The notes beneath the pieces were generated by a model. It saw nothing but the letters and a program-made list of their open reading frames with translations. It did not search any database and was not told where the DNA came from. A program made the translations under genes and the position numbers. DNA of 32,000 bases from Bdellovibrionales bacterium (GTDB lineage Bacteria; Bdellovibrionota; Bdellovibrionia; Bdellovibrionales; UBA1609). The stretch lies in NCBI GenBank assembly GCA_963692945.1, contig OY843585.1:330001-362000 (forward strand), in the 5' to 3' direction. Within the stretch, counting starts at the first letter, position 1. Every line of letters begins with the position of its first letter. Below, one piece after another: positions 2,856-7,382 of this stretch.

Positions 2856-4277
2856 TTAAATTTTTTCTCTGGAAGAACTAAGAAGATGATTTAGTCCTTC
2901 TATAAATTGTTTGCTCTTTCTTCTTTCTTTGTAACGACGATTTACCATTAAAAAGATATTATCTTGAGCCACACCCACTTGGTCTTGTCCAACGGTGATA
3001 GATTTTTTAGATAAAAACTCTTTTCCATTTTTAAATTGGTCAAACAGACTTTTAAACTTTTTAAAAGAATTAGGGTTTCTATCTGGAGCGATACCTTCAT
3101 TTCCAATTGAGCCTGCTAAGGATCTTTCATCTTTTGGCAAAGCTTCTGCTTTTTTTGTAACAGAATCAGAACCAGTCTCTAGGTCTTCCCCTGCGTTTTC
3201 AACGGCTGCAAAAAATTTTGGATTTCGCTTTTTCAAACCATCCATAATTTTTTTGACAAGGGATTTGTTTTTGGGATTGAGATTATTTAAGTCTAAAGGT
3301 CTTTTTAAAATGTCCTTACAATCGGGACCTCCACAACCAATTAGGTTAGAGATGGCTGGGTTAAACCGAAGACTTCCATCTGGAGCGATTTTTACACACT
3401 CTTCTTTGCAACCAAGAATCTTACTGATTTTCTTTTGTTTATGTTTTGCTGAAAAGGTTTCATCCGCTAAAGTTGCAGATATTTGCTGTCCTTCAAGGCA
3501 TTCAGAAGTTGTGCATTTTATTTTAACATTTGAATTTGAGTTTAAAGTGGCACTGAGTTTGTTTTGTTTTTTTTTGAGTCTTAAATAATTCACTGCAAGA
3601 GCTCCCGCTGTAACTGCTGTTGCTATTCCAAATTTTGTAAGAGTTGCTCCTAATGCAGTTTTCTCAGCTGCTACCGCATCATAGGGTGGAGCCTCCGATG
3701 CACGACTGTTTGAACGCAAGAAGTTTGCTGCTGAGGTATTCTTTGCTGCTACTGCAAATGCTGCTTTCGCTTTCATAAAAAACACTTTTGAAGCCACTCC
3801 ATTGGCAGCTCCCCAAAGTAGAGTCTGTTTTTTTTGTTTTTGAACCTTGTTTTTTGCACTCTCTTGCTTTTGATTGGCAGCTGATGAAAGGGATTTTTTT
3901 TGTGAGGTTTCTTCAGCACCATTCACTTGGACCTGATTTTTAACATTAGCAGCCGAATCTTCAGCAGCATTCCAAGGTAAAAAACTAGCAGCGGTAGGGT
4001 ATTTTGGAATCTTAGGGATTGAAGCTTTTTGATTGAGAAGAAGTCTTTTTCTTTTCATTAAACGATCTAAATCGGCTTGTGGTGCTCTAAGTTGAGTTCT
4101 CGCACCTAATCTACAACTATGTGATCTACATCGGGCAAGTTGTTGTTGAATTCTATTAACATCTTGTCTTTTGTCTTCAATGCTTGAATCTAATAGGGCT
4201 AAAGCTCTTGCATGAGAGACAATGTCAGCTTGAGAAAGAGCTGGAAAAAAACAGCATATAAAAAATAAAACTTTCAT
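2856..4277 (-). CDS. Secreted protein, paralog C of the 2.8-7.3 kb cluster (473 aa)
   Basis: N-terminal signal peptide MKVLFFICCFFPALSQA. Shares several modules with the 4668-5843 product: a coiled-coil N-region with the CRSxxC motif, QKQESAK..V.KQK, a Gly/Ala-rich hydrophobic hairpin, a Cys-pair region, and a C-terminal box FKKF.SLFDQFK...TVG.D.VGV..DNIFL...RRY.ERRK.KQFIEGL. No SD is visible upstream of the ATG. Confidence 0.8.
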   Translation of the reverse strand: MKVLFFICCFFPALSQADIVSHARALALLDSSIEDKRQDVNRIQQQLARCRSHSCRLGARTQLRAPQADLDRLMKRKRLLLNQKASIPKIPKYPTAASFLPWNAAEDSAANVKNQVQVNGAEETSQKKSLSSAANQKQESAKNKVQKQKKQTLLWGAANGVASKVFFMKAKAAFAVAAKNTSAANFLRSNSRASEAPPYDAVAAEKTALGATLTKFGIATAVTAGALAVNYLRLKKKQNKLSATLNSNSNVKIKCTTSECLEGQQISATLADETFSAKHKQKKISKILGCKEECVKIAPDGSLRFNPAISNLIGCGGPDCKDILKRPLDLNNLNPKNKSLVKKIMDGLKKRNPKFFAAVENAGEDLETGSDSVTKKAEALPKDERSLAGSIGNEGIAPDRNPNSFKKFKSLFDQFKNGKEFLSKKSITVGQDQVGVAQDNIFLMVNRRYKERRKSKQFIEGLNHLLSSSREKI

Positions 4278-4389
4278 ATTTAATGGGGGGGGGGGTAAAA
4301 GTTTTTATTACAAAAATCTTTAGGATTTGACCTGTTATAAATTTTAGAATTTCAAATACAGTGTTTTTAAATTTTAGAATTTCATTCAT
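4225..4389 (-). CDS. Small ORF 1 of the tandem repeat array (54 codons in the present G-tract state); runs across the start of the 2856-4277 gene
   Basis: The ATG at 4389 overlaps the stop of small ORF 2 (TAATG). Encodes MNEILKFKNTVFEILKFITGQILKIFVIKTFTPPP..., reads through the C11 tract and stops 52 nt inside the downstream gene, out of frame. Confidence 0.3.
   Translation of the reverse strand: MNEILKFKNTVFEILKFITGQILKIFVIKTFTPPPIKYESFIFYMLFFSSSFSS
4285..4295. repeat. Homopolymeric G11 tract (C11 on the coding strand), 7 nt upstream of the ATG at 4277
   Basis: Direct read: taat-ggggggggggg-taaaa. The equivalent position in the other two repeat units has G5 (4419-4423, 4556-4560). Confidence 0.95.
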
Positions 4390-4526
4390 TAACATGTCTC
4401 CTTTAAATTTGTTGAGATGGGGGTGCAAGTTTTTATTACAAAAATCTTTAGAATTTGACCTGTTACAAATTTTAGAATTTTAAATACAATGTTTTTATTT
4501 ATTAAAAATTTTAGAATTTCATTCAT
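4389..4526 (-). CDS. Small ORF 2 of the tandem repeat array (45 codons)
   Basis: AGGAGG lies 8 nt upstream of the ATG. The ATG overlaps the stop of small ORF 3 (TAATG) and its own stop overlaps the ATG of small ORF 1. Encodes MNEILKFLINKNIVFKILKFVTGQILKIFVIKTCTPISTNLKETC. Confidence 0.3.
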   Translation of the reverse strand: MNEILKFLINKNIVFKILKFVTGQILKIFVIKTCTPISTNLKETC

Positions 4527-4654
4527 TAATAGGTCCTCCTTAAATTTGTTGAGATGGGGGTAAAAGTTTTTATTACAAAAATCTTTAGGATTTGACCTCT
4601 TACAAATTTTAGAATTTCAAATACAATGTTTTTATTTTTTAGAATTTCATTCAT
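4526..4654 (-). CDS. Small ORF 3 of the tandem repeat array (42 codons)
   Basis: AAAGGAG directly follows the TAA of the 4668-5843 gene, and the ATG at 4654 is 8 nt downstream of GGAG. Encodes MNEILKNKNIVFEILKFVRGQILKIFVIKTFTPISTNLRRTY. Confidence 0.3.
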   Translation of the reverse strand: MNEILKNKNIVFEILKFVRGQILKIFVIKTFTPISTNLRRTY

Positions 4655-4667
4655 TAACATGTCTCCT

Positions 4668-5843
4668 TTAAATTTGTTGTCTAGACGGTCTAGAATATTT
4701 TTTTAGTCCTTCTATAAATTGTTTGTTCTTTCTTCTTTCTTGGTAGCGACGATGCATCAATAAAAAGATATTGTCTTCAATCACCCCAACTTTATCTTTT
4801 CCTACAGTCACTGTTTTCCCAGATGTAGTGATTTTCTTTTTTTTGAATTGATCAAATAAACTTTGAAATTTTTTAAAAGTATCAGGGCTTTTCCTTTTTC
4901 TTTTTTTCTCACCTTCAATTTCAGATACAGACCCTATCAATCGGTTGCCGGGTTGGAAAGCTCCAAAACTTTTTGAAGGGTCTGAAGTAGAAGCTTCTTC
5001 TGTCTCTTCCTCTTCTTCATCAAAAAGATGTGGCTCTTTAGCTTTTATATCGTCCATCATTTTTTTAACTGCTTTTTGTTGGCTAGGATTTAAGTTCTTA
5101 AAAAGATCAGATCCTCGTTTAACTTTAATTCCGTTTTTACCATTAGGTGCTTCTGGTCCATTAAGAGAATCTAAAGAGGGACAATCTGCTGGTGGACAGC
5201 CTAGTATCTCGTTTAGTCCTCCTTGAAGCTCACCTGGTGAAGGGTTTGTTTCAATCAGGTCTGTTATTTTTTTACATATGGGTGTGTTGCAAGGATTTTC
5301 TGGTTCTGGATTTTCTTCATTTTGTAGAGAGTTGCTTCTATCACTAAATTTCTTTTCTTTATCCTGTATGGTTAGGTATTGTATTGCAAGAGCAGCAGCT
5401 AAACCACCCGTTGCCATGCCTGCCCATTCCCAATATGCAGCGGCAGGAGTGCCTGCTGCTTTTTTTGCCCTCATAAAAAACAAAGCAGATGCAATTCCAT
5501 TTATAACAGCCCAATCTTTTGTTTTTCTTTTTTGTTTTGTAACTTGATCTTTTGCACTTTCTTGTTTTTGAGCATCTATATTGTCAAGGGTGGCTTCCCT
5601 TTGATAATGATTTGATTCAGCTTCTTTAGCCTCTAACAAAGCTTCTTTTTGAGACAAGAGGACTTTTTCTGAAGCACAACTGCGACAATCTTGAAGTGTT
5701 GTTTTCAGTTCTCCTATTTCTTGTTTTAACTGCAAGATCTCTTGGCTTAAACCACTGGCTTTATCAGCATTAGAAGTTGTTGCTAGAGAAACAAATGAAA
5801 AAAGAAAGCAAAAAGCAAAAATAAAAACTCTAATCACTGACAA
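4668..5843 (-). CDS. Secreted protein, paralog B of the cluster (391 aa)
   Basis: Signal peptide ...FAFCFLFSFVSLATTSNA and the same module order as paralog C. The TTG start at 5843 sits 6 nt after AGAGGT and overlaps the end of the upstream gene by 10 nt. An in-frame GTG at 5837 gives a GTGA overlap as an alternative start. Confidence 0.8.
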   Translation of the reverse strand: MSVIRVFIFAFCFLFSFVSLATTSNADKASGLSQEILQLKQEIGELKTTLQDCRSCASEKVLLSQKEALLEAKEAESNHYQREATLDNIDAQKQESAKDQVTKQKRKTKDWAVINGIASALFFMRAKKAAGTPAAAYWEWAGMATGGLAAALAIQYLTIQDKEKKFSDRSNSLQNEENPEPENPCNTPICKKITDLIETNPSPGELQGGLNEILGCPPADCPSLDSLNGPEAPNGKNGIKVKRGSDLFKNLNPSQQKAVKKMMDDIKAKEPHLFDEEEEETEEASTSDPSKSFGAFQPGNRLIGSVSEIEGEKKRKRKSPDTFKKFQSLFDQFKKKKITTSGKTVTVGKDKVGVIEDNIFLLMHRRYQERRKNKQFIEGLKKYSRPSRQQI

Positions 5844-7318
5844 TTTTTACCTCTGTCTGTGCAATAAGATTTAATAAGAGTTGTCATATGCTCAAAAATA
5901 TTTTTATGTTTTCCATTAGCACTTGATAGTGTTCGTTTAGAACGAGAATCGCTAGAAGAACTGGCACTGCCAGATGTCTTTTTACCACTTCCCTTTCCTA
6001 AAGGGTCGTTTTCATGGTTGCTTGCTTCTCCCCCACCAGAGCGAACTCCTCCTGCAAAACTACCAAAACCTCTTCCATAAGAGCTTCTAGAAGATCTTGC
6101 TCCTTTTCCTAATCCCTCTTCATCATCGTCTGTATTTCCTGCTAAAGAACTTCCTGGTGCCAAAGGAGGAGAACCGGTTGGAGTTTTTGAATCTTTTTTA
6201 TCATTAGCTTCTGCTTCTGCTGTAGAGTCTTCTGTTCCACTTGATGGTGGGAGTTCATTACCAGGGTCTGGTGGTGTTTCTCCAGCACTGGGGTCGTCTA
6301 TGTTTGCAGTTAGACAATTACTTCCAGTACATGTTGATGGGTTTTCACCAAGGTCAAAAGTTGAACCACTACCTGGGACGGTAGGTCTATTAGGTGGTGG
6401 TGGAGTTTTATCTTTTTTGCCGTCGTTATCTTTTAAATGGTCAGCAATTGTATAATTTATAGCTGCATGTAAAAGATTCTCTAGACCTTGACCCATGGCA
6501 GCTGCTGCTTTTTCTCTTTCTTTTGAACATTTGGTTTTAAATTCTTCAGCACTTGTAATTTCTGATGAACATAACTTTTCAATGGCTTCATCTTTATTTT
6601 CAACTTCTTTTGTAATTTCTGATGATGTACAGGATTCTAAGGCTTGTTTTATTTCTTTATCTATTTCTTCTATATTTTGTACTAATCCTACAAAGTTTGT
6701 TTTTTTTGTTATCTTATCTATACAAGTTTCACAGGCTTTAATTTTTTCTGTACAGGCACTTTCACACTTACGAATGTCAGTGTAACACATACCTGATACA
6801 GCAGCATTTACACCAGCTAAACCAAGATTCAGATTACCTATTTTCTCAGTTACTTGTCCTCCATTACTTGGTTTATTAGCTGCTACAACAGCTCCGTACA
6901 TTGTTCCACCTCTTCCAAGGTATGTGGATGCTGTAGTCAACTTTCTTGCTGTACAAGTGTCTTCCACTTTCCCCGGAGCATCAGCATTACATTCTATTGG
7001 GTCACCATCACCTTCTCCTGCTTCAGCTTTATTAAATGGAGAGTAGGCCGTTAAAGGATTAGGACCAGTGTGCTGCCTCTTAGCACTATTAGGTACTTCT
7101 GTCTTAACAGAAGAGGAAGTTTGATAATAATTACAAAATTTATTTTCCTCACCACAGGCTTTCATTCTTTTTTGTTCTATTTGGAATGCTTTGACTGCAT
7201 CAACATTTTCAGATGAAGCTTGATGAGAGTTAAAAAGAAAGTTAGGATTAAACATAAACATAAACATAAACATAAACGATTTTAATAATTTAAAAATTAT
7301 TGATAAAAGATTTTTCAT
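5834..7318 (-). CDS. Secreted Cys-rich / low-complexity protein A, first gene of the cluster (494 aa)
   Basis: ATG preceded by AAGGATGGG. Hydrophobic N-terminus with an (FM)4 repeat, a Cys-rich central helical region (CESACTEKIKACETCIDK...), and a Pro/Gly/Ser-rich C-terminal half ending in NIFEHMTTLIKSYCTDRGKNCQ. Confidence 0.75.
   Translation of the reverse strand: MKNLLSIIFKLLKSFMFMFMFMFNPNFLFNSHQASSENVDAVKAFQIEQKRMKACGEENKFCNYYQTSSSVKTEVPNSAKRQHTGPNPLTAYSPFNKAEAGEGDGDPIECNADAPGKVEDTCTARKLTTASTYLGRGGTMYGAVVAANKPSNGGQVTEKIGNLNLGLAGVNAAVSGMCYTDIRKCESACTEKIKACETCIDKITKKTNFVGLVQNIEEIDKEIKQALESCTSSEITKEVENKDEAIEKLCSSEITSAEEFKTKCSKEREKAAAAMGQGLENLLHAAINYTIADHLKDNDGKKDKTPPPPNRPTVPGSGSTFDLGENPSTCTGSNCLTANIDDPSAGETPPDPGNELPPSSGTEDSTAEAEANDKKDSKTPTGSPPLAPGSSLAGNTDDDEEGLGKGARSSRSSYGRGFGSFAGGVRSGGGEASNHENDPLGKGSGKKTSGSASSSSDSRSKRTLSSANGKHKNIFEHMTTLIKSYCTDRGKNCQ
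7250..7278. repeat. Hexanucleotide repeat (AAACAT)4 plus a partial unit, encoding FMFMFMFMF in the signal peptide of protein A
   Basis: Direct read: aaacat x4 at 7250-7273, followed by aaacg. Confidence 0.95.
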
Positions 7319-7340
7319 ATTTTTCCCATCCTTAAAATTT

Positions 7341-7382
7341 CTTACTTCTTACTTCTTACTTCTTTCTTCTTACTTCTTTCTT
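7341..7382. repeat. Six tandem heptamers (CTTACTT/CTTTCTT) 23-64 nt upstream of the protein A start codon
   Basis: Direct read: cttactt x3 (7341-7361), ctttctt, cttactt, ctttctt. Confidence 0.9.

Follow-up and report, generated by a model that had tools for sequence, protein, structure and literature searches.

A triplicated gene-end spacer carrying chained small open reading frames and a long C tract between two paralogous genes of a Bdellovibrionales bacterium: a possible ribosome-delivery element

We describe the spacer between two neighboring paralogous genes, here termed B and C, in a 32,000-nucleotide (nt) stretch of the genome of a Bdellovibrionales bacterium (GenBank assembly GCA_963692945.1, contig OY843585.1, positions 330,001 to 362,000). 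We refer to this whole stretch as the window, and coordinates are those of the window unless stated otherwise. The spacer, which is read on the minus strand together with both genes, consists of three tandem units, each with a short open reading frame (ORF) led by a Shine-Dalgarno (SD) motif, and the last unit ends in a run of eleven C residues close to the start of gene C. We tentatively favor the interpretation that it is a locally made, translated spacer comparable to mycobacterial interspersed repetitive units (MIRUs), which would relay ribosomes to gene C and whose final step would be gated by the slippage-prone C tract. This interpretation is drawn from the sequence, and below we weigh it against several alternatives, one of which, a neutral origin of the same features, is a serious competitor.

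The source genome is a single contig of 1.56 Mb with a GC content of 31.7%, and a comparison of PyrH gives as its closest named relative (87% identity) the MAG of an uncultured 'Bdellovibrionales bacterium'. Genes A, B and C encode signal-peptide proteins and follow one another in the same orientation on the minus strand. Gene B (4668..5837; 389 aa, with a signal peptide) begins with GTG at 5837 and stops with TAA at 4670-4668. Gene C (2856..4277; 473 aa) begins with ATG at 4277 and an N-terminal signal peptide (MKVLFFICCFFPALSQA); it is devoid of an SD, the sequence upstream of it being CCCCCCCCCCCATTAAAT. The two proteins are 41% identical across residues 132-391, i.e. the C-terminal 260 residues (E 2.6e-35), in keeping with their description as paralogs in an earlier note on this DNA. 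The gap of 390 nt between the two genes is recovered by Tandem Repeats Finder as a single array (4291-4679; period 137, 3.0 copies, 86% matches, score 603), and in a repeat search the junction segment recurs at 4372-4414, 4509-4551 and 4637-4679, its copies being 137 and 128 nt apart. On the minus strand the units start at 4679, 4551 and 4414, so that the gap is filled by three tandem units just as that note had it. Unit 1 (4552..4679; 128 nt) opens with the true tail of gene B; unit 2 (4415..4551; 137 nt) is 9 nt longer than the others; and unit 3 (4285..4414; about 125 nt) is truncated, ending at the C11 tract that replaces the C5 of the other units.

A copy of the gene B tail (CAACAAATTTAAAGGAG), recognizable over ~17 nt, closes the units. 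The array arose by a double tandem duplication of a ~130-nt segment comprising the last ~17 nt of gene B, the SD, the ATG and a short open frame, an origin from the gene B end and leader junction that had likewise been proposed earlier. The repeat is confined to this locus in the genome: a permissive blastn search of the unit against its own genome returned only borderline AT-rich matches. As potential sources of the unit we considered the best of these matches (49.7 bits, where shuffles reached at most 42.5), which falls in the AT-rich part of a PBP-like gene and was judged spurious, and the 3' end of gene A, which has just the heptamer ATTAAAT in common with the unit. The array was made locally, in a genome that is very prone to tandem repeats, with 362 non-overlapping tandem arrays in its 1.56 Mb, of which 32 have a period of at least 40 nt that is not a multiple of 3. 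Many near-perfect intergenic arrays of 40-214-nt units are seen in this unusually repeat-rich genome, for instance in the region at 718-731 kb.

All three units open a frame behind an SD. ORF1 (4526..4654; 42 codons, or 44 if counted from an additional upstream ATG at 4660) has AGGAG at 4667-4663, 8 nt ahead of its ATG at 4654, and ends with TAA at 4528-4526; ORF2 (4389..4526; 45 codons) has AGGAGG at 4540-4535, again 8 nt ahead of its ATG at 4526-4524, and ends with TAA at 4391-4389; and ORF3 (4225..4389; 54 codons) has AGGAG at 4402-4398, with the same 8 nt to its ATG at 4389-4387, and ends with TGA at 4227-4225. Successive frames are joined by TAATG (4528-4524 between ORF1 and ORF2, 4391-4387 between ORF2 and ORF3), in which the last A of the stop codon is the A of the next ATG. 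Hence, the SD-led frames of 42, 45 and 54 aa and their joins are all located exactly where the earlier note had put them. AGGAG at this spacing precedes 10% of the real starts in this genome versus 1.35% of random positions, a seven-fold enrichment, and among the 32 arrays defined above the one between genes B and C alone has in all its units an ATG preceded at 8 nt by AGGAG(G).

The divergence among the units has left this arrangement in place. The units differ by 9-nt indels, and their three internal sub-repeats (GAAATTCTAAAA, GAAATTCTAAAA and CAAATCCTAAAG) are spaced by 30/39 and 27 nt, all in phase; thus, every indel and internal spacing of the array is a multiple of 3. In the single diverged junction (AAGGAGGACCTATTAATG vs AAAGGAGACATGTTAATG) 5 of the 18 positions have changed, yet it agrees with the others in length, in its TAATG and in the 8-nt spacing, and it still has an SD, displaced by a single base. 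Retention of frame, SD and start while the peptide drifts is the pattern predicted for a translated spacer and is suggestive of one.

That the peptides do drift is apparent from the 36-codon core shared by the copies, where the seven nucleotide changes comprise six non-synonymous ones and one synonymous one (I/T, E/K, V/I, R/T and F/C, the last by two changes, and the synonymous ATC/ATT). Random non-stop substitutions in this sequence would be synonymous in 22% of cases; hence, one in seven is what neutrality predicts, while under ordinary purifying selection it would be unlikely, the probability of seeing at most one in seven being ~0.02 if 60% were synonymous. The substitutions among the three copies therefore give no sign of purifying selection on the peptides. 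We also scored codon usage by log-odds trained on 695 long ORFs, using 45-codon coding windows and spurious ORFs inside genes for comparison. ORF1 to ORF3 score -0.19, -0.12 and -0.25, against +0.25 +/- 0.15 for the coding windows and -0.26 +/- 0.23 for the non-coding ORFs. They fall below more than 99% of the real coding windows, with the ORF frame no better than the other five. Searches for homologs of the peptides recovered just the query itself from 5.8 billion proteins and only noise from 10 genomes of the genus. Taken together, these observations suggest that the three ORFs are probably not protein genes in the usual sense and that their products are probably irrelevant.

The operon context fits translational coupling. 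Gene A (5834..7318, minus strand; a 494-aa signal-peptide protein), the first gene of the operon, ends in a TGA that overlaps the GTG start of gene B (GTGA); the TAA of gene B directly abuts the SD of ORF1, with 13 nt from that stop to the ORF1 ATG; and no terminator is predicted on the minus strand in the spacer. Such stop/start overlaps are frequent genome-wide, with 100 cases of xTGA and 27 of TAxTG. The genome also encodes rho, and an untranslated spacer of 390 nt would therefore risk polarity, for which a mechanism has been described (PMC12548453). We accordingly envisage that ribosomes finishing gene B, or binding the strong SD of each unit, would translate ORF1, ORF2 and ORF3 in turn by way of the TAATG overlaps. 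The chained translation would keep the spacer covered by ribosomes, limiting Rho-dependent polarity, and would bring ribosomes to the SD-less start of gene C, while the number of units could further tune the ratio of B to C.

The last link of this chain differs from the others. Where units 1 and 2 carry ACCCCCAT, with C5, unit 3 carries AC(11)AT. The resulting C11 homopolymer (4285..4295 on the minus strand, G11 on the plus strand) lies inside ORF3, 7 nt upstream of the gene C ATG, and sets the frame of ORF3 relative to gene C. There is no TAATG here; instead, the tract imposes a 53-nt out-of-frame overlap. As assembled, with C11, ORF3 reads ...TFTPPPIKYE..., continuing from the tract as T-P-P-P-I-K-Y..., overruns the ATG of gene C in another frame and terminates 53 nt into that gene, so that its C-terminus is out-of-frame signal-peptide DNA of gene C. 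The crossing of the start codon had been noticed before; it is not a simple run-across, in that its frame is dictated by the tract. As derived from the sequence, with C12 or C9 ORF3 would end ...P-P-P-H-stop with its TAA 2 nt before the gene C ATG, and with C10 or C13 it would read ...P-P-P-L-N-M-K-V, an in-frame fusion to gene C. The efficiency of coupling drops steeply as the distance between stop and start grows (PMC12548453). The 2-nt distance of the C12 and C9 states should be favorable for reinitiation, and hand-over in the C11 state should be poor. On the favored interpretation the final hand-over would therefore depend on the tract, being poor at C11, good at C12 or C9 and replaced by fusion at C10 or C13, and tract slippage would make the expression of gene C heritably variable. 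All three frame states of the tract encode Pro-Pro-Pro (4285-4296) directly upstream of the gene C start. Pro-Pro-Pro is a motif at which ribosomes pause without EF-P; such a pause could occur beside the gene C start, and a paused ribosome would then cover it.

We examined the G and C runs of the genome for comparison. Their lengths are bimodally distributed, with 10 runs of 7, one of 8, 12 of 9, three of 10, one of 11 and three of 12, and C11 is far longer than a GC content of 31.7% predicts. Most of the 20 runs of at least 8 are either just upstream of genes, in promoter spacers, or within the first ~30 codons. Clear examples of promoter-spacer runs are TTGACA-aaaaat-G8/G9-TAAACT (two paralogs) and TTGACT-cta-C9-att-TAAAAT (three paralogs), which look like classic phase-variable promoters. 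These runs of 8-9, between the -35 and -10 of paralogous genes for small exported proteins with spacers of 14-15 nt, are found at 1509214-1509221, 1510188-1510196, 1088805-1088813, 1093256-1093264 and 1127619-1127627 of the genome. The runs in 5' coding regions occur in both in-frame and out-of-frame states: for instance, paralogous pilin-like or fiber-like genes have tracts of C9 and C10 (261683-261691, 737626-737635) and of C12 and C9 (943597-943608, 1140780-1140788) a few codons past an upstream ATG, some copies being in frame and others out. Tract lengths thus vary between paralogs (8/9, 9/10 and 9/12), as they do between the units of our array (C5, C5 and C11), and relatives in the genus, the family and the order commonly have long G/C runs too. 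A role of the C11 tract as a promoter spacer was considered and rejected, since no -35/-10 pair fits it, in contrast to the evident examples at other loci of the genome. With no promoter spacer that the tract would fit and no gene besides ORF3 that contains it, the frame of ORF3 is the obvious thing to be switched if it is a switch. If so, it would act either through that frame or at the level of the RNA, where the tract is predicted to be single-stranded and the fold does not change with its length.

A more elaborate version of the same idea, to which we assign a rather low probability, is a heritable three-state translational switch operating through the ribosome-delivery ORF, in which slippage of the C tract would leave gene C coupled and ON, occluded and low, or expressed as an N-terminally extended fusion, and ribosome delivery would scale with the number of repeat units. 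It would combine variation of the variable-number tandem repeat type with that of the homopolymer type, both acting on translational coupling rather than on the promoter or coding frame.

Several observations weigh against the proposed translated relay, which is architecturally plausible. The assembled C11 state is the unfavorable one for its final step, and assemblies may misstate a homopolymer by one base. The repeat was not found in any relative, whether in the 10 genus genomes, in the 5.8 billion proteins or, by 23-mer, in genome contigs; and a related genome with tandem paralogs of the B/C type has a plain spacer of 46 nt. Further, a core SD (4-mer) is present at just 31% of 381 unambiguous starts, and AGGAG at 10%, and gene C may initiate alone from its AU-rich start. 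Since ~70% of the genes here start without an SD, the missing SD of gene C is a weak argument for its needing a relay. Of the intergenic ATGs, 9.7% start frames of at least 42 codons, and by a mechanical listing of ORFs 6 of the 32 comparable arrays likewise yield unit-spanning ORFs repeated at the unit spacing. Finally, with a unit divergence of ~5%, neutral drift would keep all signals roughly half of the time, which leaves their retention with little statistical weight. Hence, the relay of coupled leader ORFs suggested in the earlier note stands as a plausible architecture with a precedent in MIRUs (PMC12548453), while its argument from the SD-less start of gene C fails and ORF chains turn out to be a common by-product of tandem duplication.

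These same observations lead to the strongest of the alternatives, which we regard as quite possible: that the spacer is junk left by tandem duplication of the junction between B and C, with SD, ATG and stop copied along, and that gene C initiates independently. The ORFs may then be translated incidentally, and neither they nor the array would affect gene C. The 362 arrays of the genome, with 32 of the relevant kind and ORF chains in 6 of these, favor such a by-product, as does the fact that most genes here do without an SD. The one synonymous change in seven is close to the expected 22%, codon usage is non-coding-like in every frame, and conservation is absent from the 5.8 billion proteins and the 10 genus genomes. 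Moreover, in the start region ATGTTAATGAATGA a stop is met in two of the three arrival frames of an upstream ORF within 12 nt of the next ATG. We infer from this that a stop near the next start is to be expected after tandem duplication and that a TAATG join is not improbable. What sits less well with a neutral origin is that an SD with exact spacing survives five changes in one junction, and that indels and internal spacings are all multiples of 3. It also leaves unexplained why the growth from C5 to C11 took place solely in the last unit, at the start of gene C, when the long G/C runs of this genome mark expression-relevant sites.

A regulatory role of the tract as RNA, with incidental ORFs, is unlikely. 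On this view the unpaired C run of the leader would be the target of a G-rich small RNA (sRNA), a Rho loading site or a spacer governing access to the start, with an effect graded by its length. It agrees with the predicted single-strandedness of the tract at all lengths, with the presence of rho and with a documented case in which the length of a leader homopolymer grades expression via an sRNA (PMC8295292). However, no RNA partner came to light, a run of 11 nt makes a short Rho site, there is no Rfam match at E <= 1, and the fold is no more stable than those of shuffled sequences (z -1.07); in addition, the SD-led ORFs are left unexplained.

It is very unlikely that ORF1 to ORF3 are genuine genes encoding small cationic peptides with a membrane-active or signaling role, amplified as a multicopy array within the operon, as had been offered as an alternative in the earlier note. 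They do follow strong SDs and stay open for 42-54 codons, their products carry hydrophobic residues along with a net charge of +3 to +6, and ORF2, alone of the three, is present in a public protein collection as a gene-caller prediction. However, the six to one excess of non-synonymous over synonymous changes (at most one in seven synonymous, ~0.02 at 60% synonymous), the codon scores below more than 99% of real coding windows and the lack of any homolog among 5.8 billion proteins or in the genus speak against peptide genes, as does the C-terminal part of ORF3, which is out-of-frame signal-peptide DNA. The peptides had also been described as amphipathic, which is not supported, as their helical hydrophobic moments are not above those of shuffled versions (p 0.09-0.49), and their richness in Lys, Ile, Phe and Asn follows from DNA rich in AAA, ATT, TTT and AAT. 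Least probable of all is a DNA-level element, such as an array of protein-binding sites or promoters, exemplified by the repeated GAAATTCTAAAATTT motif and by antisense TACAAT promoters on the plus strand: although the near-palindromic 15-mer is present 4-6 times in the array and weak promoter-like hexamers are found on both strands, the exact 15-mer is absent from the rest of the genome, which argues against a regulon, and the count of promoter-like elements (18) is within the shuffle expectation (13 +/- 4).

In the genus, homologs of B and C are found as single genes adjoining the same nucleotidyltransferase gene (loci L003 and L004), whereas one same-genus genome (G003) has two tandem paralogs of the B/C type separated by 46 nt of plain AT-rich sequence, with neither repeat nor small ORF (L011:1744-1789). 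These single genes or plain spacers indicate that the repeated spacer is a novelty of the present lineage, and the 46-nt spacer probably shows what the junction looked like before the triplication. Matches to the 23-mer in five metagenome contigs proved to be chance 24-nt matches in an organism of 41% GC. In a further same-genus genome (G002) we observed a T7G9 run at a contig end, at or near the 5' part of a B/C homolog (L004:1817-1825), a hint that homopolymers accompany this family in other species as well.

The closest parallel to the proposed spacer is with MIRUs, repeats that sit in gaps inside operons and have small ORFs coupled to the gene that follows (Supply et al. 1997, summarised in PMC12548453), and that are thought to permit insertion with little effect on expression (PMC12548453). 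In common with these, the array consists of short repeats, in MIRUs often tandem, that lie in an operon-internal gap and are co-oriented with the genes. In both, the small ORF of each unit is joined to the next by a stop/start overlap, with a presumed role in passing ribosomes rather than in making protein. In contrast to MIRUs, which are dispersed over many loci and apparently mobile, the unit described here is at one locus and is built from the tail of a neighboring gene; its overlaps are of the -1 type (TAATG) as opposed to -4; ORF3 is, as assembled, out of register with the gene C start and holds a long homopolymer; and the phylum is unrelated, with no sequence similarity. The array thus shares the principle of MIRUs without belonging to them, being a single-locus element made of a neighbor's tail, with -1 overlaps and a homopolymer-gated last ORF.

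More generally, translational coupling by NTGA or TAATG stop/start overlap is known from ribosome-delivering upstream ORFs and bicistronic designs (PMC12548453). The SD at the end of the upstream cistron and the -1 overlap are as in such systems, and the pair of genes A and B uses GTGA; what sets the present case apart is that the upstream cistrons are three serial, repeated frames of 42-54 codons with no sign of selection and that their coupling is predicted from the sequence.

Slipped-strand phase variation is exemplified by the poly-G in the 5' coding region of Neisseria pilC and by H. influenzae lic1 with its several starts and CAAT repeats. The present locus resembles these in having a long G/C run at the 5' end of a gene for a secreted protein, in a genome with a set of such runs, and three frames with three predicted outcomes. 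It differs in that the C11 tract lies in an upstream ORF and not in the regulated gene or its promoter, and in that length variation is here a prediction. Leader-peptide attenuators such as trpL and ermCL similarly place a short ORF upstream of a gene, and the Pro-Pro-Pro of ORF3 could pause ribosomes next to the start. However, no alternative terminator and antiterminator structures were found in our case (fold z -1.07, no Rfam match, insensitivity to tract length), and the ORF is present in three serial copies. As for the RNA-level explanation, its model would be the H. pylori tlpB leader, where a G-repeat is targeted by the sRNA RepG and the repeat length grades expression (PMC8295292); a C run targeted by a G-rich sRNA would be its mirror image.

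Searches of Pfam and NCBIfam gave zero matches for A, B or C, and a query with gene B against the 5.8 billion proteins returned only gene B itself. About 40 relatives of gene C were detected with HMMER among 1.84 billion representative proteins, with the similarity confined to the C-terminal 60-150 residues. A single-sequence AlphaFold2 model of gene B (pLDDT 53.7) was too poor for structure searching.

Two further simple-sequence repeats are seen at the head of the operon. A 7-nt repeat at 7339-7382, reading AGAAGTA on the strand of the gene (6.3 copies with 91% matches), separates the probable promoter region of gene A (ATG 7318) from its SD; it is a second simple-sequence repeat of the A-B-C operon and could vary expression. 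A perfect 6-nt TTTATG repeat at 7249-7277 (4.8 copies) encodes FMFMFMFMF within the signal peptide of gene A and could give rise to in-frame length variation of its hydrophobic core. On the other side of gene C, a gene for a DUF4143/AAA_14 ATPase (1134-2288) separates it from the nucleotidyltransferase gene that is the direct neighbor in relatives (L003, L004), and is probably an insertion.

If the neutral explanation is right, the locus is a useful warning that tandem duplication in AT-rich genomes can mechanically yield chains of SD-led ORFs. If instead the relay is real, it would be a second, independently evolved case after the mycobacterial MIRUs and would mean that intergenic tandem repeats can be tolerated or even used inside operons by virtue of the coupled ORFs that they bring with them. 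Phase variation would likewise gain a mode that places the slippery tract in a ribosome-delivery ORF instead of in the gene or its promoter. In either event, this small-genome and little-known Bdellovibrio-like lineage has a full repertoire of contingency loci, with G/C tracts in promoters and 5' ends and repeats of 6-7 nt. Such a repertoire indicates strong selection for variability of the surface, which one would expect of a life style attached to a host or prey.

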